Assembly: GCA_963674825.1 (NCBI GenBank)
Contig: OY771587.1
Coordinates: 1,920,001 to 1,984,000 of the forward strand
Direction: 5' to 3'
Origin: Candidatus Cloacimonadales bacterium
GTDB taxonomy: Bacteria > Cloacimonadota > Cloacimonadia > Cloacimonadales > JAIOQZ01
DNA: 64,000 nucleotides
The translations under genes were made by a program, and so were the position numbers. This document shows, one piece after another, positions 21,630-51,124 of this stretch (the first letter of the stretch is position 1; the number at the start of each line of letters is the position of its first letter). Under the pieces are notes generated by a model that was not told the origin of the DNA, did no database searches, and saw only the letters and a list, made by a program, of their open reading frames with translations.

Positions 21630-21825
21630 ATATTGACAGAGAATAGAAGAGCAATTCAGTGATGTTTGCTATCTTGCTGGGATGTGGTATAAACGATTTG
21701 GTGAAAAGAAAAATACTATCTGTATATTTTACTATAAGATGGCATATACAAAAATGTGATGACAGTGCATTCCTTGTGTTTTGCCGAAACAGATGGGTTG
21801 GTCATTATTCCTAAATCGTCAACCA

Positions 21826-39479: not shown

Positions 39480-40331
39480 TTATTGCATCGATTCGTAATA
39501 ATCCATAACTCGTCGCACGTAGTGCTGGGTCTCTTTGAACGGCGGAATACCGTTGTGCTTATCGACATTTCCAGGACCGGCATTGTATGCTGCCAGCGCT
39601 AATTGGACGTCACCTTCATAGCGATCCATCATCATCTTGAGGTAGCGAACGCCACCCTGAATGTTCTGCTCAGGATCGAACGAATCCTGTACGCCAAGTC
39701 CTTCCGCTGTCTTGTCCATGAGCTGCATCAGACCCTTTGCGCCAGCGTGTGATTCAGCGTTGGGATTGCCGTAGCTCTCCTGTGCGATGACCGCCTTGAC
39801 CAGGTTCTCGTCCACACCGTACTTGTCGGCGATCTCCACGATGATCGGTTCGTATTCCCGAAGACGATCTGCGAGAGTCTTGCCGATGGGCTGCGCGGTT
39901 TTTTCCACGACTTTCTCGGCAACTTCCTGCACCGTTTCCGTTGTTTTGGTCAGGGGCTTCTTCGTGCGAATGTAGTCTTTCTCTGAGAGGTTTCGCAGGC
40001 TTTCGATGGGATCCTGATCCTGTGCATCGAACTGCTTCATGATCTGCTTCGAGAGGCCGAAATCGCCTTTCTTCGAGATGTTCATGGCGATCTGCTGCAG
40101 GAACATTTCCTGATACCAGTCGCCACCCGGGACATCGCCCAGCATGGATGCATTCTCGAGTGTCTCGGTCATTGCTGAAAGCATCTGCCGTACGAAAATC
40201 GCCTCGAATTCCTGCGCTGCTTCTTCCGCTTTATCGCGGTCGAAATCCTTGATCTGCTCACCGAGTTTCTTGAACTTCTCGGCGTCGATCCGCTGGATTT
40301 GCAGTGCTTGTTGTCCTTCGAGTGCGATCAT
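39480..40331 (-). CDS. flgJ: FlgJ-like rod-binding domain fused to an SLT lytic transglycosylase
   Basis: [14 protein letters not shown] (rod-binding); [31 protein letters not shown] (SLT). Confidence 0.85.
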
Positions 40332-40340
40332 ACCATGCTC

Positions 40341-41426
40341 CTACATGATTACCAGCTCGGCCTGTAATGCGCCGGCTGCCTTGAGTGACTGAAAAATGGA
40401 TATAAGATCACGCGGTGTGACTTTAATGCTATTAAGTGCACGGGCGAGTTCCTGTACGGTGCTCGATTCCAGCACCATAACCCGTGCGGGTTCGTTTATC
40501 GCGGAGATTGTTCCGTATTCGCTCGTCTGTTCGGCCATTCCCCAGCCGACACTCTCTGTTTCCGTATAGGTGTTGATCTTGATCATCAGGTTGCCATGCG
40601 CCACTGCCACTTCGGAAAGCTCGACATTGCCGCCGGCGACGATCGTTCCTGTACGCTCGTTGATGACAACGCGCGCTTTCTGCTCGGGAACCACTTCGAG
40701 ATTTTCGATCGTCGAGATGAAGCCGATCAGCTTCTTTTGAACCAGCACCGAGTCGGGTACTACGATCTGCACGGAACTTGCATCTTCCGGCGCTGCCAGA
40801 CGATATTCGAAATGTGCGTTGATCGCTTCAGCGACACGTTGTGCAGTAGTAAAATCGGGATTTTGAAGATTGATGAGCAGCTCGCCGTTGTAGAGCATCT
40901 GACTATAGACTTCTTTCTCCACCACAGCGCCGTCGGGAATCCGTCCCACCAGCGCGAAGTTCTTACGAACTTTCGCACCTGCCGTGCTGGAATTGAAACC
41001 GCCGATGGAGATCGCGCCCTGCGCCATCGCGTAGAGCTCTTCATCGATACCGAGAAGCGGCGTCATAAGAAGCGTTCCGCCTTCAAGGCTCTTGGCGTCA
41101 CCCACGGAAGAGACGGTTACATCGAAACGACTGCCCGACTTGGAAAAAGCCGGAAGCGTTGCGGTAACGATTACCGCTGCAACGTTGTTGGGCCGAATCT
41201 TGTTCTCCGCGATTGTCAGGCCGAACCGCTCCATCATATTCTTGATCGATTGGATCGTCATCTGACTGCTGCTGCCGTCGCCAGTCCCATCCAGGCCAAC
41301 CACTAGCCCGTAGCCGATAAGCTGCTTCGATTCCAGACCGCTGAAACCGGCGATGTCCTTTAACCGGACCTGCGCATGCATGAGCACGACGCTCAGTAGT
41401 AACGCAAGAAACACGGCTCTCTTCAT
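40341..41426 (-). CDS. flgI: Flagellar P-ring protein
   Basis: RLKDI, LIGYGLVVGLDGTGD, GDAKSLEGG, INERTGTIV, AGALQAEL. Confidence 0.96.
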   Translation of the reverse strand: MKRAVFLALLLSVVLMHAQVRLKDIAGFSGLESKQLIGYGLVVGLDGTGDGSSSQMTIQSIKNMMERFGLTIAENKIRPNNVAAVIVTATLPAFSKSGSRFDVTVSSVGDAKSLEGGTLLMTPLLGIDEELYAMAQGAISIGGFNSSTAGAKVRKNFALVGRIPDGAVVEKEVYSQMLYNGELLINLQNPDFTTAQRVAEAINAHFEYRLAAPEDASSVQIVVPDSVLVQKKLIGFISTIENLEVVPEQKARVVINERTGTIVAGGNVELSEVAVAHGNLMIKINTYTETESVGWGMAEQTSEYGTISAINEPARVMVLESSTVQELARALNSIKVTPRDLISIFQSLKAAGALQAELVIM

Positions 41427-41722
41427 TTTCTTTACCTCATAAATTGGTTTTCCACTTGGGCACATCGTTGCCGAGACGCTATGCCCGATCGGAAAATTTA
41501 CCGAACCAGATGGGCGTTGTGAAAGGCTGTCTCTCGTAATCCGCAGCCATAAAACTGTTGTCTCTCGTAATCAACAGCACGAATTGATGTCATTCGTAAT
41601 CAACCACACGGCCAATGAAGACAACCACATCCCCATCAGCCACTTGATTGGAATCGGATAACCACTTCCTCTTCCTCTCGTTTTCCACCGTCGTGGAACC
41701 CATCATTTTTCACGTTATGTTT
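41427..41722 (-). promoter_or_regulatory. Long structured 5' leader (or sRNA) with three repeated stem-loops
   Basis: Motif GATTACGA(GA/AT)GACA at 41528-41541, 41559-41572 and 41588-41601, each inside a different stem. Confidence 0.6.
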
Positions 41723-41734
41723 GCTGACTAATTT

Positions 41735-41750
41735 TGCATGAGCTATGCCA
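41735..41750 (-). promoter_or_regulatory. Putative sigma54 promoter of the flagellar operon
   Basis: Minus strand TGGCATAGCTCATGCA. Confidence 0.7.
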
Positions 41751-42059
41751 ATTGATATGCTTGTATTGTAAAACTATATAGAGTGGTGAGATACGAGAAA
41801 TGTAGGTAGGATATTCCCCTGGAAAATGAAGGTCGTTTCATTCCATGTGGGAAAGAATTTCCCGATAGGTTTTTTCCTCAGAAGGTGTTCATCGTCCGAA
41901 TATACCAATCGTTTAGGCATTCGGATGTCGATATAATGACGCAACATCATTATCCCCATGTTTTTCTTGACTTCATAAACCCGTGATCTTTTCTGAAATC
42001 TGGCGTAACAAATCCGGTCGGATCTTGTTGCATTAAAAGAAAGAACCCGGGCAGGTTGA

Positions 42060-43094
42060 ATGTTAGAGCGAATCATTACACCAGAACAGATGGACACGGA
42101 GCGTGAATTTGACCGCACGCTGCGACCCAAAACACTCTCTGATTTTGTTGGGCAGGATCAGGTTAAGGAGATCCTCGATATTTCCATCAAAGCTGCCCGG
42201 AAACGCAACGAGCCGCTCGATCACGTGCTGCTCTATGGCCCTCCCGGATTAGGAAAGACAACCCTTGCCCATATTATCTCGAACGAACTCGACACCGAGA
42301 TCAAAGTCAGCTCCGGCCCCGTGCTGGAACGTCCTGCCGATCTGGCCGGCGTGCTGACCAACCTCGATCGCCGCAACGTGCTATTCATCGACGAAATCCA
42401 TCGACTCAACCACGTGATCGAGGAATATATGTATCCTGCCATCGAGGACTTCGAGATCGAGATTATCGTCGATAGCGGTCCCAGTGCGCGCACATTCAAA
42501 ATTGATATCGACCCCTTTACACTTATCGGAGCCACTACACGAGCCGGACTGCTCACAGCGCCTATGCGCGCACGTTTCGGAATTATTTTACGGCTGGACT
42601 ACTACGATGAGGAGAGCATTCGCCGGATCATCGAACGTTCTGCCAACCTGATGGGCGTGGAAATCGATCCCGAAGGCCGTGACGAGATGGCGCGACGCTC
42701 ACGCGGTACGCCACGCGTCGCCAATCGCCTGCTCCGAAGAGTGCGCGATTACGCCGAGATCAAAGGCGACGGCGTCATTACGCGTGAGATCGCGATGAAA
42801 GCGCTCAAGATGCTCAATGTGGATAACATGGGCCTGGACGAGATGGATAAACGCATCCTCATGATGATCATGGAAAATTACCGCGGTGGTCCTGTCGGGC
42901 TCAAGACGCTTGCCGTTGCCGTGGGTGAAGATCCCGGCACTATCGAGGAGATATTCGAACCGTATCTGATCCAGCAGGGATTTCTCGAGAGAACCATGCA
43001 GGGTCGCAAGGTGACGATGAAGGCTTACCGGCACTTTGGGCTCAAGCCGATACAATCGCAGCAGACAATTTTTGAAGAAATGGGTGATGAATGA
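42060..43094 (+). CDS. ruvB: Holliday junction DNA helicase RuvB
   Basis: LRPK, GPPGLGKTT, FIDEIHRL, GATTRAG, RGTPRVANRLLRRVRD. Confidence 0.98.
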   Translation: MLERIITPEQMDTEREFDRTLRPKTLSDFVGQDQVKEILDISIKAARKRNEPLDHVLLYGPPGLGKTTLAHIISNELDTEIKVSSGPVLERPADLAGVLTNLDRRNVLFIDEIHRLNHVIEEYMYPAIEDFEIEIIVDSGPSARTFKIDIDPFTLIGATTRAGLLTAPMRARFGIILRLDYYDEESIRRIIERSANLMGVEIDPEGRDEMARRSRGTPRVANRLLRRVRDYAEIKGDGVITREIAMKALKMLNVDNMGLDEMDKRILMMIMENYRGGPVGLKTLAVAVGEDPGTIEEIFEPYLIQQGFLERTMQGRKVTMKAYRHFGLKPIQSQQTIFEEMGDE

Positions 43095-44176
43095 GACAAC
43101 TTCTCGCAACCTCAATTCTACTGATCGCGATTCTGTCGCTGATTTCATGTAAAGACAGCTCTTCACCGACTTCCAATACAGCCTGGATTAATACACCCAA
43201 CGAAGGTTACGTTTGGTATCGATATTGGACGCTCAGCCTGCAATATACAGGTGATACACCCGAAAGTGTCGTGTTTTACGTAGATAATGGAACTTACAGT
43301 ACCGATACAGAAGCACCGTTTACCTTTGAGTGGGACCTTGAAGATTTCGAGTATGGTCCGCACAGGATCGAAGCGAAAGTGTATTTTCCCGATGATGAAA
43401 TCTACGATACAGACGATATCTCGATTCGTTACATGCCGATGCCGTTCAAGCCGGAACTGCTGGAAAATTACGACGGCTACACGAAGCGGGATGAGCATGG
43501 TAACCTGATCGGCGAGGTTGATTCGCGTGACTGGCAACTTTGGGACCTCAATACAGAGTTAACGAGAGAAGCCACGATCGGTGGTGTGGAGTTAAGGGCT
43601 GAAGGTCGAAAAGTCTACATTGATTGGAATACCGTTTTCGAGGATAACCATACCGGATTCTATCTGTATCGGGCAACTGATCCCGATGCAATGAATGAGG
43701 ATCATGCTATCCAGATAAACCAGTACGCGATTACCGGAACTCCCGGAGATGACGGAATTGTTTACTACAGTTGGATCGATTCTCTGAATATCGAGTATAT
43801 GACCTACTACTACTGGTTGGACGCGGTCGATCAACAGGGCGTTTCGGAGGTGTCCGGTCCGTGGGCGTGCACTGTAAGTGAAGATATTGAATGGATTACA
43901 TCCATCAGCTCTCCATATCCCAACCCAACTACTGACGAGTCATCCTGCTATTTCACACTGAGCGAAGAAAGCGAAATGACCGTGATGATTGTCGATCGTG
44001 ACGGAGATATACTTGATATAATAATGAATGCAGAAACACTGCCTGCCGGTGCTAATAGTTTCACGTGGAACTGCTCCGATTTCAGCTACGGTCTTTACCG
44101 TTGTGCATATTACATCAAAAATGAATCAAACGAATCCATCGGTTATGGCGATATTGTTCATGGCATTAGCAATTGA
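43091..44176 (+). CDS. Lipoprotein with Ig-like domains and a CTD-like C-terminus
   Basis: Lipobox LIS-C; Big-like domain; PYPNPTT...FTWN....YGLY. Confidence 0.75.
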   Translation: MRQLLATSILLIAILSLISCKDSSSPTSNTAWINTPNEGYVWYRYWTLSLQYTGDTPESVVFYVDNGTYSTDTEAPFTFEWDLEDFEYGPHRIEAKVYFPDDEIYDTDDISIRYMPMPFKPELLENYDGYTKRDEHGNLIGEVDSRDWQLWDLNTELTREATIGGVELRAEGRKVYIDWNTVFEDNHTGFYLYRATDPDAMNEDHAIQINQYAITGTPGDDGIVYYSWIDSLNIEYMTYYYWLDAVDQQGVSEVSGPWACTVSEDIEWITSISSPYPNPTTDESSCYFTLSEESEMTVMIVDRDGDILDIIMNAETLPAGANSFTWNCSDFSYGLYRCAYYIKNESNESIGYGDIVHGISN

Positions 44177-44232: not shown

Positions 44233-45021
44233 ATGAAGAAACCTGTTTTTGCGGTTGATATAGGAAATACGCACATTGCCTGTGGGATATACCACGAAGA
44301 TGCCTTGAAGCATTCATGGCGGATCGGTACCGACGCGTCCAAAACCGAGGATGAATACTTCTCCGTGCTGGACCGATTATTTGATCATGCCGGAATCGGT
44401 ATGGATCAGATAGGCTATGTAGCGCTTTCATGCGTTGTTCCGCCTCTGACCAGGGTGTTCGATCACATCACCGCGAAATACTTCAACGCGCAATTCCTCA
44501 ACGTCAATAGCGCTACCAATACTGGGCTTACATACCCGATGGAGGATCCATCTTATATCGGCGCTGATCTTATCGTAAACGCCTATGCCGCATGGAAGAA
44601 ATACCAGGATCATTGCATTGTATGCGATTTCGGAACCGCTACCACGATTCAGCTCGTGGGTAACGATGGTTTTTTCCACGGCGCGATTATCGCTCCCGGT
44701 GTCATGACATCCTCGACGAATCTCATCCAGAAGACGTCACAGCTTTCCGCTGTGCGGCTGGAAAAGCCGGTCAACGTTCTCGGAACCAGTACACGCGATG
44801 CGATGCTGTCTGGTATTGTGGGAGGAAGCGCGCACATGATCGACGGTTTCATCAACGAAATTCGCGCAACCTACGCGCATCTCGGTCAGATCAAAGCGAT
44901 CGCCACCGGCGGTATTGCCGGATTGATCGGCGAGAACGCAAAAACACTCGACACCATAGACAAAACGCTGACCCTGGACGGCCTCAACATGATTTGCAGG
45001 AAAATATTCGCGGATGAATAA
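44233..45021 (+). CDS. coaX: Type III pantothenate kinase
   Basis: VDIGNT, GAD, DFGTATT, ATGG, LTLDGL. Confidence 0.95.
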   Translation: MKKPVFAVDIGNTHIACGIYHEDALKHSWRIGTDASKTEDEYFSVLDRLFDHAGIGMDQIGYVALSCVVPPLTRVFDHITAKYFNAQFLNVNSATNTGLTYPMEDPSYIGADLIVNAYAAWKKYQDHCIVCDFGTATTIQLVGNDGFFHGAIIAPGVMTSSTNLIQKTSQLSAVRLEKPVNVLGTSTRDAMLSGIVGGSAHMIDGFINEIRATYAHLGQIKAIATGGIAGLIGENAKTLDTIDKTLTLDGLNMICRKIFADE

Positions 45022-48000
45022 GAAATTCCTGCTCATCCTGCTGCTCACAGCGCTGTTGATGCCGTTAATGGCTGAAGCTTCTTATAAGCTGCCTTACACG
45101 CTGAACGGCTACTACCCGTTGGTTGACAACAAAATCGACATCCTCAAATACCCACACGGCGTTGGCCTGGGATTGATAAATGCCCGGATCAAACCTGACT
45201 TCGAATTCACCACGCGAGAGGTGGTCGATATCGAGGATTCACTCGTTGTGATGGTTGCGGAATATCATGGAATCGAGTATCCGTTGCAGATAATTGTCAC
45301 GTTCGATCAATATATCAACAACCAGATGGTGGCATCATTCCACAAGATGTTGCGTGAACAGGCTATGCAGCAAATTCAGGATGGTGAGAAGGAAACCGGT
45401 GAAGGTATCTTCGGTAAGGAACTTTCTATCGACCTTCCCAAAATGGCGCTTCCAAAGGTTGTTAAAGATTTCATGGGCGATAAGGCTGCCCGGCTGAATA
45501 TTGACGGTAGCGAGAAACTGACATTCCGCGTGGGAAGTACCAAGAATGACAACGCCCAGTACAGTGAAAGCGGATCGTCGGAAGACCTCGACCTCGACCT
45601 CAAGCAGGAGCTTCGGCTTCGGCTTCGCGGTACGATTGGTGAGAAAATCCATGTGAATATCACCCATACTTCCGTTTCCGACGAAGAGATCGGTAATCCG
45701 AATACGATCGAGATCAAATATGTCGGTAACGAGGACGAAATCGTTCAAACGATCGAGGGTGGAAATATTTCCCTAGCGCTATCGGGCTCGAAGATCAATT
45801 ATTCGGCATCATCGGAAAGTCTTTTCGGTATCAAAGCAACCATGAAAGCAGGACCGCTCGATTTGACCTATATCCTGGGTAAGGAAGAGGGCGAAAAGAA
45901 TACGGAGTCATACACCGGGCAATCGCAGGAAGACTCACTTACCTTCTACAGCCAGAACTATGCGCATCGCTCTTACTTCTACATCGATGACCCGAAAGCT
46001 CTCTATGCGATCTACGGTATCGATACCGACTTACCTGATAATCTTCCCGAGACGTGGTCTGGCAACGCGATCGTGACCGGCTCTGGTGGCGAGTGGATGA
46101 TCAAGTCGCCGCAGTTGCTTCCCGATGAAAACTCGGTTCGCGTTTTCGTGGACGACCATAACTATAACAACGATACGGTGGATTCTTTCCCGGGTATTTC
46201 GTGGAACGAACCGGAAAACACGACCGAATACAGATTCGAAGAGCTCTTCGAGGGTACGGACTTCACGTTCGACTACGGAACGGGTATTCTGTCGATCGAA
46301 AAATCTATTACCGACCTTTACACAGTAGGTGTTACTTACACGCTCAACAATGAGCAGATTGGCGATCCATCGACGACCAACCTGCAAGTCAAGCTGTTGA
46401 AGAAGAAGAATCAGACAGAATTGGACAACACTTGGAAATACGAGATGCGCAACATCTACGATCTGAACATGCAAAATGTGAAGAGCGAAGGTTTCAAGGT
46501 GAACGTCTATACGGTGGTTGACGGCGGTTCGGAACTGGTGTATGCAGTGCCGGACGACATCGATATGGGTACCGTGGGCTCAACTTACAACGACTACCTG
46601 CGTCTCGATAGCAACGGTGACGATCTTATCAACGGTGACGACAACACCATCAACCTCAGCAGCGGTATCGTAATTTTCCCATTCCTGGAGCCATTCTACG
46701 CTTTGGGCGACTCTATCATCTACACCGATGAATCCACAATTACCAGCACCGATACGCAGATGCGTATGTATGTTGTCGGTAAGGTTGGTCGTGACCAGAT
46801 TTCGCTCAATCAGCTCAACATCGTCAAGGGTAGCGTCTCGGTGAAGGTTAACGGAAAGACCCTTGAAGAGAATGTCGATTATACGGTTGATTACGATTTC
46901 GGAACCGTGACCTTCCTCTCGTCTGAAGCAAAGGATCCTACCGCCGAAATTGAGATCGATTACGAATACAGGCCTATCTTCGCTATCTCATCGCGCATCA
47001 TGACCGGTGTCCGTGCTGACTTGAAGCTTGGCGACAACGCCCGTCTCGGCGGTACGTTCATCTACCACTCGGAAGAAGTGGAAGAAAAGCGTCCCAAAAT
47101 CGGCAGCGAAAACAAGATCCAGATGATGGCCGGTCTCGATGGAGAAATCAGCATCGACATGCCGCTCCTTACCCGGATCGTCGATTGGATTCCACTGGTT
47201 AAAACTGACGCCGAATCGGAAGTGAGCCTCTCCAGCGAAGTTGCGATCAACATCCCGCAGATATACGGCGATCCCGATAAAAAAGGTGATCCCGAAGCAT
47301 ATCTGGAAGACATGGAATCGATCCTCAGCACGTTCCCGCTGGGAACCACACGTGCAACCTGGGTGCCCGGTAGCAAGCCACTGAATTATAACTATGGCAA
47401 AGCCGATATCAACTGGTATAATCCGACCGATATCTACATGAATGATGTTTATGACGACGATCTGCTGACCGAAGACGAGAAAAATGAAAAGGTCTCGCTG
47501 ATGCAGGTTCGTGTGCTTACACCGGAAATCCATATGCCGGGAATCAACCGGAAATATTGGGCCGGACTTCAGAAATATATCGGTAACCAACTTGATTTCT
47601 CTGAAAAGAAGTACATCGAGATCATGGTCAAGGCAGACAGCGTTGATTCGCCGATCAACATCCACATCGACCTGGGTGATGTCAGTGAAGACTTCTATAC
47701 CGATTTTGGCGGCCTGGGTGTGCTCAATACCGAAGATGGTAAAAACGGCGGTGACTTCGACGGCGCTTACGACTACAAAGAAGACATCGGTCTGGACGGA
47801 TATCCGAACGGTAATCCGCTCGATGATCCGAACGACAACTTCAGCAACGACAAAGTAAACAACATCTACCCATATATCAACGGTACCGAGGACAACAAGA
47901 GTCTGGATACGGAAGATCTCGACGAAAACGGTAGTCTCGATACCACGAACAGGTATCTGGAGTACACGGTCTCGCTCAATTCCGATCAATTCCTGGAGAG

Positions 48001-51000
48001 TGAGAACGATAAAGGATATCGCATCTACCGCATTCCACTGAAGGACAAGGCAGCATTTCAATCTGTCACCGATTCTGCCACGCAGCCCGATCTGGAACGT
48101 GTCAGCTATGTCAGGGTGTGGTTCGAGACGGAAGAGGATGCGATCATCAACATCGTGTCTATGGATATCGTCGGAAATAAATGGGAAGAATCGACGATCC
48201 GCTATTCCGGTACCGATGAGATTGTCCCGGCTTCTTACCTTGAAAGCCATAGCGTGTCCGTTCAGGCTGGTATCATCGATAACCAGAAGGATAACACATA
48301 CACTTCACCGCCTGAGACCACAGAAGAGAAAGACGGCGTCGAGGTGTTTGAGCAGGCTTTGACCATCGATTACGAAAACATCCATAGCGGTTTGTATTCT
48401 CTGGTTCATCAGAATTTTACGAATACCTACAACCTTCTGAACTACGGCAAGCTGCGCTTCTGGGTCTACCCTGAGGCGGGAGATTTCGGCACGGTGAAAG
48501 ATTCGATCGAGATTGTTCTTCAGATCGGTGGTGATTCGCTCAACTATTATGAAGTGGCGATCAAAGTTCTGCCCAATGAGAAGCGAGACAAGATGCAGCG
48601 CTCACTTTGGACGGATTACGAGATTGATTTTAATGACCTTACAAAGCTGAAGCTCATAGACCCGGACACTTATTCTATCGTGTCCGATACGGTAGGAATA
48701 TACACATACAAGAAGTACAAGAATCCGACGCTATCTTCGATCGATTACATGTCGCTGGGTATTCGCGTACCGGGAGGCAGCGAGAAATTCACGGGTCGTG
48801 TGTTCTTCGACGATATTCGCGTAGCGGAACCATTCGACGATATAGGTTACTCGGCGAGTTCATCGCTGAGCATCAAGTTCGCGGACTTCTCGAACCTCAA
48901 TGTGAACGTAAGCTGGGAGACTCCAAACTACTACTTGATCAAGAATAGAACGGGTAGCTCCGGAACCACGAACACGGCGTTCAACGAGTCGATCAGCCTG
49001 GATGTGACCAATAACTACAACCTGCATAAGTTCTTCCCGGCCGAGTGGGGACTCAGCATCCCGCTTTCGCTGAAACAGACGCAATCCGAGTCGAAATCGA
49101 AATATATCTATAACTCGGATGTCGAGGTGAGTACGATCACCGATAAGGCCGAAAAAGACAGGCAGATTACCAAGACGCTGAAACGATCGGCTACGATTTC
49201 TTTCAGCCAGAATAAAACACCCGATAGCTGGATCCTGGCGTATACAATCAAGAATATCTCGTTTAATGGCGATATGTCGAAAAATATCAGCCGTACGCCT
49301 TCGCAACGCGATACGACGTTCTCTTACAACCAGAAATACGCTTATAATCTGGATATCCCGCGTGAAAAACTGGGCATCGAGCTGTTCAAGAATTATTCGG
49401 TCTATTTTCTGCCGCGATCCTATAAGAACAGCCTCAACTACCGCATCTCGTTCCCGCGCAGATGGCGCTGGCTACGCGATTCTGACGGTTCATACGGGTG
49501 GGAACGTGACACACAGGTTCAGACGACTAAGACCGTTGATACCAGCAACATCATCAGCTACGATATCACCTCCGATCTGGGCCTGACCTACTCGCTGACC
49601 ACCACACGAAACATGCTTTGGCGTGAAGAATGGCAGGGTGTCAATATCGGCCGTGCAAAGGATAAAACCCAGAGCTGGGATCTCTCTTACAATCCGAATT
49701 ATATCGATAATATCCTGACGTTCAGCAGTGACATGAACATCGATTATAACGAAAGCCAGAAGGAATACAACAACACTACTGATCCCGATCTGCCGGAGCA
49801 TTACTTCAAGTATCAGGGTAGCGTGAAGCGTAAAATCAGCTTCGATGTCACCTTGCGTAACAGCGATTTACTCACTGGCCTTGCGGACTGGCTTGGTGCA
49901 CCTCCGGATGAACTCGAGGAAATGCCTGACGAGTTCAAGGATATCGAAGATCTCAAGGGCGATGAAAAGGACTTCGACAAAGATGGTGAATTGGATATGG
50001 AACATCTCGACAATCTCGGCAATGGTGACGGAGATGAAAACATCCCGCCGGACGACCTCAAGCCGGGTGAAGATCAAGGCAGAGCCGGCTCAACCCGTCA
50101 CAAACCGCAGGAAGAACACAAGTCGCTGAACGATTTCGGTATTCCCGATTCCACGATGACCGATTCAACGATCGCCAAGCCAGACGAGCCTCTGACGACC
50201 GGTAAAGTGCTGGCAATTCTGGTTCGCTATCTGGCGCGTTTCGAGAATATCACCGTAGATTACACCAATAGCTACGGAACGATCTTTGACGAACGCGATA
50301 ATCCGCCGAACTTCAACTACCAGCTAAGTTTACCTCATGTACTTCCCGAAAACTACGAAGACGGGGAAATTACCGAAAAGACTCTCGACGATGCTTATAC
50401 CGTCTCTACCGGATTCCAGATATTGAACAACCTGAATACGCGATGGAGTTACGGAAAAAATATCAGCCGAACCTATTCGAGCTCTACCGGAAAGGTTGAG
50501 AAGACAATCTTCCCGAACGTGACAATCACGCTTACCGAGGTTGAGAAGATTGTAGGACTTACCGATTACCTCTCGAATTCGCGTATAACCAGTACATACA
50601 CACAGTCCCAACAGGACACTTGGGCCTCAGGGCGACATACGAAGGTCGTGAAAACCATCGCGATGAGTCCGCTTGCCGAATGGGCTGGTAAATGGAGCTT
50701 CGATCTCAATTCCCGCGTCGGGTACAACATGGATACGTCTGAAGATGTTACCCTGTACGAAGATAACAACAGGGTTGTAGAACGGAACAGCTCAAGGCTA
50801 TACGCTACGCTTTCACACACTCTGAAAGCGGCCAAGGGGATCAAGATCCCGTTCGTGAAAGAGCGGCTGCGTCTCAAGAACGAATTTACCACCGACCTTA
50901 CATTCTCCTGGGAAAAGAGCAAGACTACGCGTAAGAGCGGTGAGGAAACGAACCAGACAGACGCAGATAACGAGAAGTACGATATCACACTTGGCGGTAC

Positions 51001-51124
51001 GTACAATTTCCATCGCAACGTAAACGGCGGCTCGACGCTAGATTACTCCTGGCAGCACGACAAAAAGAACAACAACAAGATCCGCACCTTTGGAATCAGC
51101 CTCTGGGTCGAGATCCTGTTCTAA
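45014..51124 (+). CDS. sprA: SprA/Sov-like very large outer-membrane protein (T9SS translocon homolog)
   Basis: 2036 aa; signal peptide; GTIGEKI, Y.G.EDEIVQTIE.GN, LFGIK, YEMRNIY, V.VNG..L.ENVDYTVDY..G, IDLG.VSED, DTEDLD.NG; terminal Phe. Confidence 0.82.
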   Translation: MNKKFLLILLLTALLMPLMAEASYKLPYTLNGYYPLVDNKIDILKYPHGVGLGLINARIKPDFEFTTREVVDIEDSLVVMVAEYHGIEYPLQIIVTFDQYINNQMVASFHKMLREQAMQQIQDGEKETGEGIFGKELSIDLPKMALPKVVKDFMGDKAARLNIDGSEKLTFRVGSTKNDNAQYSESGSSEDLDLDLKQELRLRLRGTIGEKIHVNITHTSVSDEEIGNPNTIEIKYVGNEDEIVQTIEGGNISLALSGSKINYSASSESLFGIKATMKAGPLDLTYILGKEEGEKNTESYTGQSQEDSLTFYSQNYAHRSYFYIDDPKALYAIYGIDTDLPDNLPETWSGNAIVTGSGGEWMIKSPQLLPDENSVRVFVDDHNYNNDTVDSFPGISWNEPENTTEYRFEELFEGTDFTFDYGTGILSIEKSITDLYTVGVTYTLNNEQIGDPSTTNLQVKLLKKKNQTELDNTWKYEMRNIYDLNMQNVKSEGFKVNVYTVVDGGSELVYAVPDDIDMGTVGSTYNDYLRLDSNGDDLINGDDNTINLSSGIVIFPFLEPFYALGDSIIYTDESTITSTDTQMRMYVVGKVGRDQISLNQLNIVKGSVSVKVNGKTLEENVDYTVDYDFGTVTFLSSEAKDPTAEIEIDYEYRPIFAISSRIMTGVRADLKLGDNARLGGTFIYHSEEVEEKRPKIGSENKIQMMAGLDGEISIDMPLLTRIVDWIPLVKTDAESEVSLSSEVAINIPQIYGDPDKKGDPEAYLEDMESILSTFPLGTTRATWVPGSKPLNYNYGKADINWYNPTDIYMNDVYDDDLLTEDEKNEKVSLMQVRVLTPEIHMPGINRKYWAGLQKYIGNQLDFSEKKYIEIMVKADSVDSPINIHIDLGDVSEDFYTDFGGLGVLNTEDGKNGGDFDGAYDYKEDIGLDGYPNGNPLDDPNDNFSNDKVNNIYPYINGTEDNKSLDTEDLDENGSLDTTNRYLEYTVSLNSDQFLESENDKGYRIYRIPLKDKAAFQSVTDSATQPDLERVSYVRVWFETEEDAIINIVSMDIVGNKWEESTIRYSGTDEIVPASYLESHSVSVQAGIIDNQKDNTYTSPPETTEEKDGVEVFEQALTIDYENIHSGLYSLVHQNFTNTYNLLNYGKLRFWVYPEAGDFGTVKDSIEIVLQIGGDSLNYYEVAIKVLPNEKRDKMQRSLWTDYEIDFNDLTKLKLIDPDTYSIVSDTVGIYTYKKYKNPTLSSIDYMSLGIRVPGGSEKFTGRVFFDDIRVAEPFDDIGYSASSSLSIKFADFSNLNVNVSWETPNYYLIKNRTGSSGTTNTAFNESISLDVTNNYNLHKFFPAEWGLSIPLSLKQTQSESKSKYIYNSDVEVSTITDKAEKDRQITKTLKRSATISFSQNKTPDSWILAYTIKNISFNGDMSKNISRTPSQRDTTFSYNQKYAYNLDIPREKLGIELFKNYSVYFLPRSYKNSLNYRISFPRRWRWLRDSDGSYGWERDTQVQTTKTVDTSNIISYDITSDLGLTYSLTTTRNMLWREEWQGVNIGRAKDKTQSWDLSYNPNYIDNILTFSSDMNIDYNESQKEYNNTTDPDLPEHYFKYQGSVKRKISFDVTLRNSDLLTGLADWLGAPPDELEEMPDEFKDIEDLKGDEKDFDKDGELDMEHLDNLGNGDGDENIPPDDLKPGEDQGRAGSTRHKPQEEHKSLNDFGIPDSTMTDSTIAKPDEPLTTGKVLAILVRYLARFENITVDYTNSYGTIFDERDNPPNFNYQLSLPHVLPENYEDGEITEKTLDDAYTVSTGFQILNNLNTRWSYGKNISRTYSSSTGKVEKTIFPNVTITLTEVEKIVGLTDYLSNSRITSTYTQSQQDTWASGRHTKVVKTIAMSPLAEWAGKWSFDLNSRVGYNMDTSEDVTLYEDNNRVVERNSSRLYATLSHTLKAAKGIKIPFVKERLRLKNEFTTDLTFSWEKSKTTRKSGEETNQTDADNEKYDITLGGTYNFHRNVNGGSTLDYSWQHDKKNNNKIRTFGISLWVEILF

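Follow-up and report, generated by a model that had tools for sequence, protein, structure and literature searches.

What does a 14-nt motif recognise that recurs three times between a promoter and the flagellar gene flgI? The question is raised by a 64,000-nt stretch of a Candidatus Cloacimonadales genome (the window, G000:C1:1920001-1984000, from a genome of 3.89 Mb assembled as a single contig), where the repeats sit in a 634-nt gap between ruvB, on the plus strand from 42060, and a minus-strand flagellar operon with the Pfam-assigned order flgI-flgJ-flgN-flgK-csrA-flgL-fliW. The original prediction, made from the letters of the window alone, had described a multi-site platform for an RNA-binding protein. 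Comparison with the rest of the genome and the phylum points to an RNA partner: the repeats are antisense to the starts of the genome's own flagellin genes, and the flgI leader RNA that would contain them likely pairs with the flagellin mRNAs, which would hold back their translation. We place the probability of this reading slightly above even.

Three copies of the motif GATTACGA(GA/AT)GACA stand on the minus strand, 3' of the promoter and 5' of flgI. A pattern search of the window with GATTACGAGAGACA, allowing up to two mismatches, returned 4 matches against 0.59 expected, a number reached by none of 100 shuffles. Two leader copies are exact (41541-41528 and 41572-41559) and one has 2 mismatches (41601-41588); all three are on the minus strand, spaced by 31 and 29 nt, in agreement with the earlier description. 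The flagellin open reading frames (ORFs) begin with ATGTCACTCGTAATCAACC (MSLVINHN), and the leader motif is the reverse complement of this start. Searched for throughout the genome with at most one mismatch, the 13-mer gave exact matches at three places, twice within the leader and once at 686627; the one-mismatch matches include 687831 and 688928, both of which coincide with start codons in the tandem flagellin array, whose genes are read from the other strand. The repeats thus run antisense to flagellin positions +2 to +15. Such a search had been suggested with the original prediction, and the partner sites that it revealed are flagellin gene starts. When the 401-nt leader was compared with its own genome by BLAST, the top non-self matches were again the flagellin starts, together with the region of a conserved RNA element 3' of the flagellin genes, termed L2 below. 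The features of the flgI upstream region are as follows.

40341..41426, minus strand: flgI, the first gene of the operon (Pfam).
41458..41515, minus strand: two mutually exclusive hairpins with a common GGGC at 41486-41483, the first of which contains the conserved box.
41500..41516, minus strand: conserved box CGCCCAUCUGGUUCGGU, all 17 nt of which are complementary to L2 RNA 3' of the flagellin array.
41525..41548, minus strand: repeat 3, with potential hairpin GGCUG/CAGCC and the same targets as repeat 2.
41555..41580, minus strand: repeat 2, with potential hairpin CUGUUG/CAACAG; it pairs with a flagellin-start mimic, and with fla1-3 with one A.A mismatch.
41586..41609, minus strand: repeat 1, with the extended seed GUGUGGUUGAUUACGAAUGACAUC, antisense to -1..+22 of the fla1/fla2 mRNA.
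41607..41682, minus strand: GGA-rich tract, an insertion of about 76 nt unmatched in genomes of the same genus.
41683..41698, minus strand: 5' hairpin UUCCAC-GACG-GUGGAA, read from the sequence and the whole-leader fold.
41735..41750, minus strand: sigma54-type promoter TGGCATAGCTCATGCA (TGGCAT-N5-ATGCA, GG-N10-GC spacing).

The start of flgI is most likely at 41426, judging from a ribosome-binding site and the alignment with relatives. The promoter element at 41750-41735 has its GG and GC ten bases apart, rpoN is encoded at G000:C1:2570897-2571376, and a transcript start near 41724 can be predicted from the position of the promoter; the earlier proposal of a sigma54-driven flgI leader thus agrees with the promoter and the rpoN gene, and CsrA and FliW, which had been named as products of this operon, are both assigned by Pfam.

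Repeat 1 pairs at 22 of 23 positions (-1 to +22) across the start codon of fla1 and fla2. The calculated energies of its duplexes are -35.7 (fla1), -35.6 (fla2), -29.8 (fla3) and -10.8 kcal/mol (fla4), and control start regions (flgI, ruvB) gave -6 to -19 kcal/mol. With fla1-3, repeats 2 and 3 reach -19 to -25 kcal/mol overall (-23 to -25 for repeat 2, -19 to -23 for repeat 3), these weaker pairings being due to the one A.A mismatch.

The flagellin 5' untranslated regions (5'UTRs) also carry ordinary CsrA-type sites, that is, a GGA hairpin and AAGGAGG. Upstream of many flagellin genes, about 55 nt from the start codon, an inverted repeat TATAAGAC-N5/6-GTCTTATA is followed by the GGA hairpin and AAGGAGG (e.g., G000:C1:687880-687960 and loci L032 and L034-L037); this repeat may serve as an operator or form a 5' stem of the flagellin mRNA.

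Among the 232 genomes of the phylum, 23 encode FlgI, and the DNA upstream of flgI was read in all of these flagellated genomes; the relatives found through the FlgI protein are metagenome-assembled genomes of Candidatus Cloacimonadales or Cloacimonadota. A sigma54-type element GGCAC/T-N-TTGC lies upstream of flgI in 21 of the 23, and in 20 a sigma54-type promoter is followed by one to three seeds and then by a near-invariant box, CCCAUYYGGUUYGG, before flgI. The conserved seeds hold GAGUGA/GAGAGA-type words antisense to AUGUCACUC... and occupy the equivalent place, between the promoter and flgI, in at least eight families. Their number varies: there are three in G000, G002 and G003, one in G001, two in G011 and G015, and two or three differing seeds in G016, G033, G205 and G207. 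The exceptions to the design are G206, with a promoter 36 nt from flgI and no leader, and G230 and G234, members of another family of the class, in which flgI stands behind an upstream gene. The alignment with relatives proposed earlier as a check revealed a leader design that is conserved before flgI.

A terminator-like hairpin with a T-run was recognised by eye, with no scan run, shortly 5' of the flgI ribosome-binding site in 14 of the 20 leaders. No terminator separates the repeats from flgI in the window's genus (G000-G003) and in G006; in the window's genus the element would therefore be a true 5' leader of about 300 nt. Directly 5' of the box stands a hairpin with a GGG/CCC stem and, in most genomes, a GACG loop; of the two G207 copies, one has UUCG and the other GCAA. 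Exchanges of this kind, between stable tetraloops, suggest an RNA that is read in the direction of flgI. The GACG loop is likewise retained in the 5' hairpin of G001, G011 and G019, where the stem sequence differs. Most leaders (G001, G003, G007, G016, G022, G033, G207) also contain AUAG(A/U)GUG about 15-25 nt after the promoter, a word that is degenerate in the window and could act as an additional short seed against UCACUC or as a signal at the 5' end. In G003 the leader and flgI are present in two near-identical copies, on contigs C3 and C4 (L022 and L024), owing to either duplication or assembly redundancy.

Flagellin starts were gathered from 19 genomes and compared with the leaders. RNAduplex of whole leaders against 65-nt start regions yielded long, loop-ridden duplexes and was replaced by ungapped scoring and by 28-nt windows. 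With ungapped scoring, 12 of 20 leaders had scores reached by at most one of 200 dinucleotide shuffles, G007 was reached by 2 and G019 by 3, and six of the 20 were not significant. With gapped 28-nt windows against the own flagellin start, 15 of 20 leaders beat all 60 shuffles; for the others the number of shuffles as good was 1 (G016), 3 (G006), 5 (G019), 11 (G007) and 58 (G038).

Lineage-specific changes are more telling than the leader-by-genome energy matrix considered below. In G033 the flagellin sequence CUCUACAUUAACA (CUC-UAC-AUU-AAC-A) is matched by the leader segment UGUUAAUGUAGAG, and in its congener G205 the flagellin sequence CUCGUCAUUAAUA (CUC-GUC-AUU-AAU-A) is matched by UGUUAAUGACGAG. 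The G015 leader pairs with the flagellin start at 17 of 17 positions. Flagellin UCACUC-AUCAUC is met by leader GAUGAU-A-GAGUGA in G204, and UGUCAC-UUAUCAUU by AAUGAUAG-U-GUGACA in G012. Counting the leaders with an ungapped score of at least 26, flagellin positions 10, 11, 12, 15, 19 and 21 show changes on both sides that preserve Watson-Crick pairs. Judged from these alignments, the seeds track lineage-specific codon changes of flagellin. The repeats could instead be relics, that is, non-functional flagellin fragments inserted in reverse and later duplicated, and the agreement of repeat 1 with fla1 at 22 of 23 positions is what a recent copy would give. Yet seeds retuned to the flagellin of each lineage stand between promoter and flgI in all of the families counted above and are accompanied by a second conserved seed, the box, with a partner of its own, which makes relics the least probable of the explanations considered here.

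The exact box was found in 26 of the 232 genomes: in 15 of the 23 flagellated ones, mostly twice, and in 11 of the 209 others, once each. We estimate the chance expectation at about 0.075 matches per genome, and the 11 of 209 are near chance. The second copy in flagellated genomes is always located just past the last tandem flagellin gene and on the opposite DNA strand, within the following element.

G000:C1:686449-686572 (L001:1323-1446), minus strand: L2, a conserved structured RNA of about 115 nt on the flagellin strand, 3' of the last flagellin gene.

The flagellin strand of L2 folds better than its complement in 15 of 15 genomes (-49.7 vs. -33.0 kcal/mol in G000), and its consensus comprises four helices rich in G.U pairs, which would read as C.A on the complement. 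A reading of L2 as a paralogue of the leader in the same sense, preceded by a -10-like TATAAT, was dropped because of the better folding of the reverse strand in all 15 genomes and the strand-specific G.U pairs; only once the strand was settled could the partner of the box be recognised. In an alignment of 15 sequences 98.6% of cells are paired, and the paired fraction, the number of compensatory cells and the covariation score were reached by none of 500 shuffles. Extended to 31 matches (25 distinct rows, including 15 metagenome contigs), the alignment, which was fitted to the model, has 97.4% of cells paired; both sides have changed in 8 pairs, and on none of the five measures did any of 500 shuffles do as well. 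The covariance model located L2 on the flagellin strand in four further flagellated genomes, bringing the total to 19 of 23, and found a single copy in G000 and none in G207, G206, G230 and G234.

The 3' end of L2 is a stable hairpin followed by a U-rich stretch, and in one family L2 begins about 55-80 nt past the flagellin stop codon. Inspection by eye gave no convincing sigma54 or sigma28 promoter for L2, a terminator scan of the L2 region flagged only a hairpin further downstream, and no family of Rfam 15 scored at or near its gathering threshold, either for this flagellin 3' element or for the leader. We read L2 as the conserved element that forms the 3'UTR and terminator of the last flagellin gene, a view suggested by its position and its predicted fold.

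On the flagellin strand, L2 contains the exact complement of the leader box. Box and anti-box form 15-21 uninterrupted paired nucleotides in 19 of 19 genomes, and in a table of 21 box positions with 14 distinct rows, positions 4-17 are paired in 195 of 196 cells. Five positions have changes on both sides. For example, position 9 is C-G in most genomes, U.G in G012/G028 and U-A in G016/G033/G205; position 10 is U-A or C-G, and U.G in G011; position 7 is G-C in G005. Where only one side differs within positions 2-17, the result is a wobble pair in all eight cases and C.A in none. This asymmetry argues for direct RNA-RNA pairing and is not what same-sense paralogues or DNA sites would give. In one family a second leader segment, AGCCUAGCACCUC, is complementary to L2 as well. 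A genome-wide search for sequences antisense to the box, with up to two mismatches, found exact matches only at the two known loci, and scattered matches with one or two mismatches inside genes. The window holds a one-mismatch copy of the box, CCCATCTGTTTCGG, at 21784-21797 on the minus strand. Conserved seeds complementary to a target mRNA, together with covariation, were accordingly found for both pairs of partners, leader with flagellin starts and box with L2, as expected of a base-pairing small RNA or UTR regulator.

The same data speak to the suggestion, made alongside the original prediction, that the repeats are DNA sites. Repeats and box would then be operators of a transcription factor that also acts at the flagellin starts and 3' of the flagellin array, a scheme that would accommodate the spacing of about three helical turns and the identical words at several flagellar loci. 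The sites lie 3' of the promoter, though, and G.U pairs are kept in eight of eight single-sided box differences with C.A never seen; moreover, the bulged, bipartite complementarity of one family would be senseless for identical DNA sites, and the flanking hairpin exchanges its loop among stable RNA tetraloops. We no longer favour operators and consider them highly improbable, only a little less so than relics.

A further partner lies next to L2. In the window's family and two others, a word that mimics the flagellin start is found between the flagellin stop codon and L2, and G000 has a second, similar word in the same interval.

G000:C1:686600-686655, flagellin strand: flagellin-start mimic GUCUCUCGUAAUCAAC, between the fla1 stop codon and L2, a perfect partner of repeats 2 and 3.
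G000:C1:686785-686830, flagellin strand: second start-like word GUGUCACUCGCACAAG, between the fla1 stop codon and L2, with duplex energies of -15 to -17 kcal/mol.

Repeat 2 and the mimic are paired at 21 of 21 positions, one of them G.U, with an energy of -37.6 kcal/mol; repeat 3 reaches -30.2 kcal/mol. In G006 the leader seed and the mimic have changed together with the flagellin starts unchanged, and the seed and mimic of G005 agree at 22 of 22 positions, a stretch unlike flagellin among them.

The same pairings would also fit control in the opposite direction. Abundant flagellin starts and L2 might bind the flgI leader in trans and alter termination, processing or stability of the flgI-flgK-csrA-flgL-fliW message, which would give late-gene RNA a feedback influence on the middle operon with csrA and fliW. 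Several observations would suit this reversal: the box stands directly 5' of the terminator in most genera and belongs to one of the two mutually exclusive hairpins in the window; L2 is more conserved than the leader, which adapts through wobbles, always with a leader U opposite an L2 G; CsrA and FliW are encoded behind the leader; and the stoichiometry generally expected would favour flagellin RNA as the regulator. On the other hand, we could derive no alternative fold in which box pairing would affect the terminator or the flgI ribosome-binding site, which lies about 20 nt past the last hairpin, and seeds that cover start codons are needed by a translational repressor and superfluous for a sensor in cis. 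We therefore regard the reversed direction as unlikely, at roughly one chance in four.

The three copies of the leader motif had been described earlier as displayed in three different stems; the stems are present in the sequence, and hairpin potential is retained with changed stem sequences for copies 2 and 3 in two congeners, but the hairpins of copies 1-3 are weak: their energies are -2.2, -6.7 and -7.4 kcal/mol, values matched by 89, 11 and 11 of 200 shuffles, and copy 1 pairs differently in the 93-nt minimum-energy fold. The two hairpins said to compete for GGGC, at 41515-41483 and 41486-41458, do have this pairing potential, and the second is used in the whole-leader fold. The GGA-rich tract, also noted before, is real, but it is an insertion that same-genus relatives lack: in BLAST comparisons with them it appears as a gap (positions 119-194 of the leader query uncovered). 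By this comparison it is specific to G000 and outside the conserved design. A plus-strand ORF of 24 codons at 41530-41603, starting from repeat 1 with a sequence like a flagellin N-terminus (MSFVINHT...), was considered and dropped, as it is not retained as a gene in congeners; it is probably no gene because it has 11 codons in a congener and no ribosome-binding site.

It was the repeated loops that had suggested a protein sponge or switch in the manner of CsrB/RsmZ, with sites for a CsrA of unusual, non-GGA specificity, for FliW-CsrA or for another factor. Repeated motifs with hairpin potential in a flagellar operon with CsrA and FliW would fit such a sponge, as would the four GGA triplets of the genome-specific insertion. 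The 14-nt repeat itself has no GGA, however, and the triplets occur only in the 76-nt insertion, which is not conserved within the genus; the motif is antisense to flagellin and covaries with its codons and with the 3' mimic; and canonical GGA sites are found in the flagellin 5'UTRs, so that no unusual CsrA specificity has to be assumed. In addition, the hairpins are weak and no Rfam match of the CsrB/CsrC/RsmX/RsmY/RsmZ type was obtained at E-values up to 10. A protein sponge is thus very improbable, if marginally less so than DNA operators. What survives of the original proposal is a multi-site RNA platform behind a sigma54-type promoter: it is conserved in relatives, and the Rfam scan that had been recommended (cmscan of 40000-43000 at E-values up to 10) found no family for the leader, the only match being a chance snoRNA hit of 13 bits.

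We propose the following model for repression of flagellin translation by the leader. The leader would be transcribed from the sigma54-type promoter; in most genera it would end at the terminator and act as a small RNA of about 100-150 nt, and in the window's genus the leader of some 300 nt would stay joined to the flgI-csrA-fliW mRNA. Its duplex with flagellin mRNA would block ribosome access while the basal body assembles; a block of initiation is the most likely outcome, because the duplex spans the start codon and the first seven or eight codons. Pairing would complement CsrA, a product of the same operon, which would act at the GGA sites of the flagellin 5'UTR. L2 and the start mimic might offer the leader another place to dock, or act as a decoy and titrate it when flagellin genes are strongly expressed.

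Several points weigh against leader-mediated repression. Transcription over the leader, as well as the start and the ends of the transcript, is itself predicted from sequence; a search for sequencing runs yielded three DNA entries from a single study and none of RNA. Flagellin mRNAs usually far outnumber basal-body mRNAs, which limits repression by a stoichiometric leader. Hfq was not found in the genome; other RNA chaperones were not searched for. As no terminator is present in the window's genus, a free small RNA is not expected there unless the leader is processed. The three repeat hairpins are weak, as noted above. Across genomes, the leader of G038 has no seed (58 of 60 shuffles as good), those of G007, G019 and G006 are marginal, and a leader-by-genome energy matrix was not decisive, the own genome ranking 1-4 for 13 of 20 leaders, because flagellin starts are conserved between genomes. 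Finally, copies 2 and 3 are always mismatched with the flagellin starts at one A.A position and match the 3' mimic more closely, and the seeds of G005 and G006 also fit the mimic better than flagellin; the primary partner in the window's family may therefore be the flagellin 3' region. A tentative extension would combine both partners in an RNA-only checkpoint beside FliW-CsrA: the leader's seeds, up to three in number, would lock the flagellin starts, and the deeply conserved 3' RNA of the last flagellin gene, with its anti-box and, in this genus, the perfected start mimic, would titrate the leader when the late genes fire. Flagellin mRNA would then free its own translation via its 3'UTR, and a three-RNA switch would time filament synthesis. 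We consider this checkpoint doubtful, albeit somewhat less so than control in the reverse direction.

Control of flagellar genes by UTR-derived RNAs is known from other bacteria. The sigma28-dependent flagellar small RNAs of E. coli depend on Hfq, and one of them, FliX, derives from the fliC 3'UTR. These RNAs, which include MotR and FliX (PMC10578931), resemble the leader as 5'- or 3'UTR-derived pairing RNAs within the flagellar hierarchy and differ from it in sigma factor and targets. FlaX of Vibrio cholerae is reported to arise by processing of the flaA 3'UTR and to act at several sites to block the translation of flaB (PMC11879080). The likeness lies in a flagellar UTR-derived RNA that pairs with flagellin mRNA at multiple sites and blocks initiation, and in the flagellin 3'UTR origin, as L2 would have; FlaX works with ProQ and is 3'UTR-derived, whereas the seeds described here are placed in a sigma54-type flgI 5' leader or small RNA (PMC11879080). 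The Cloacimonadales seeds differ further in covering the start and first codons of several flagellin paralogues, with the 3' element as a putative partner of the leader that is not known to be a regulator in its own right.

We also compared CJnc230/FlmE and CJnc170/FlmR of Campylobacter jejuni, of which FlmE is reported to be RpoN-dependent and cut from the 3' end of the flgE mRNA (PMC11187230). FlmE is similar in being sigma54-dependent, arising from a middle-class operon and tuning flagellin-level output by pairing; it raises flagellin by repressing flgM and a regulator mRNA, whereas the present leader lies 5' of flgI and is complementary to flagellin (PMC11187230). The Qrr small RNAs of Vibrio (PMC3730234) share the sigma54-driven promoter, a conserved seed and a terminator but are separate paralogous quorum-sensing genes, unlike the repeated seeds in one RNA that would double as an operon leader. 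Finally, the CsrB/RsmZ sponges and the CsrA-FliW-flagellin switch resemble this locus in repeated motifs with hairpin potential, an operon with CsrA and FliW, and GGA sites in the flagellin 5'UTR; the leader does not belong with these sponges, because its repeats have no GGA and are antisense to an mRNA. We found no sequence or Rfam relation of FlaX, FlmE or the E. coli small RNAs to the leader or L2, and our literature search turned up no paper on small RNAs of Cloacimonadota, which does not prove that there is none.

The principle of flagellar control by UTR-derived RNAs is thus known, and its form and the uncultured lineage are likely new. Such control of flagellar assembly has been worked out only in a few proteobacteria and Campylobacter, and the present candidates would extend it to an uncultured phylum. 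The design would differ in three respects, namely the tandem antisense seeds in an operon leader, their aim at the start codons of several flagellin paralogues, and the second seed that ties the leader to a conserved flagellin 3' element with clear intermolecular covariation. Leader and L2 represent two new candidate RNA families and a possible natural example of co-evolving partners, one an operon leader and the other the 3'UTR of an mRNA. The pairings are short and defined, and so can be tested without culturing the organism.

Two further observations concern the plus-strand genes 3' of ruvB. The protein encoded at 43091-44176 of the window combines a bacterial Ig domain with a secretion-sorting domain at the C-terminus (below the Pfam cutoff), the latter being a signal of the type IX secretion system (T9SS) kind in a flagellated Cloacimonadales genome. 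An ORF of 2036 residues extends from 45014 to 51124.

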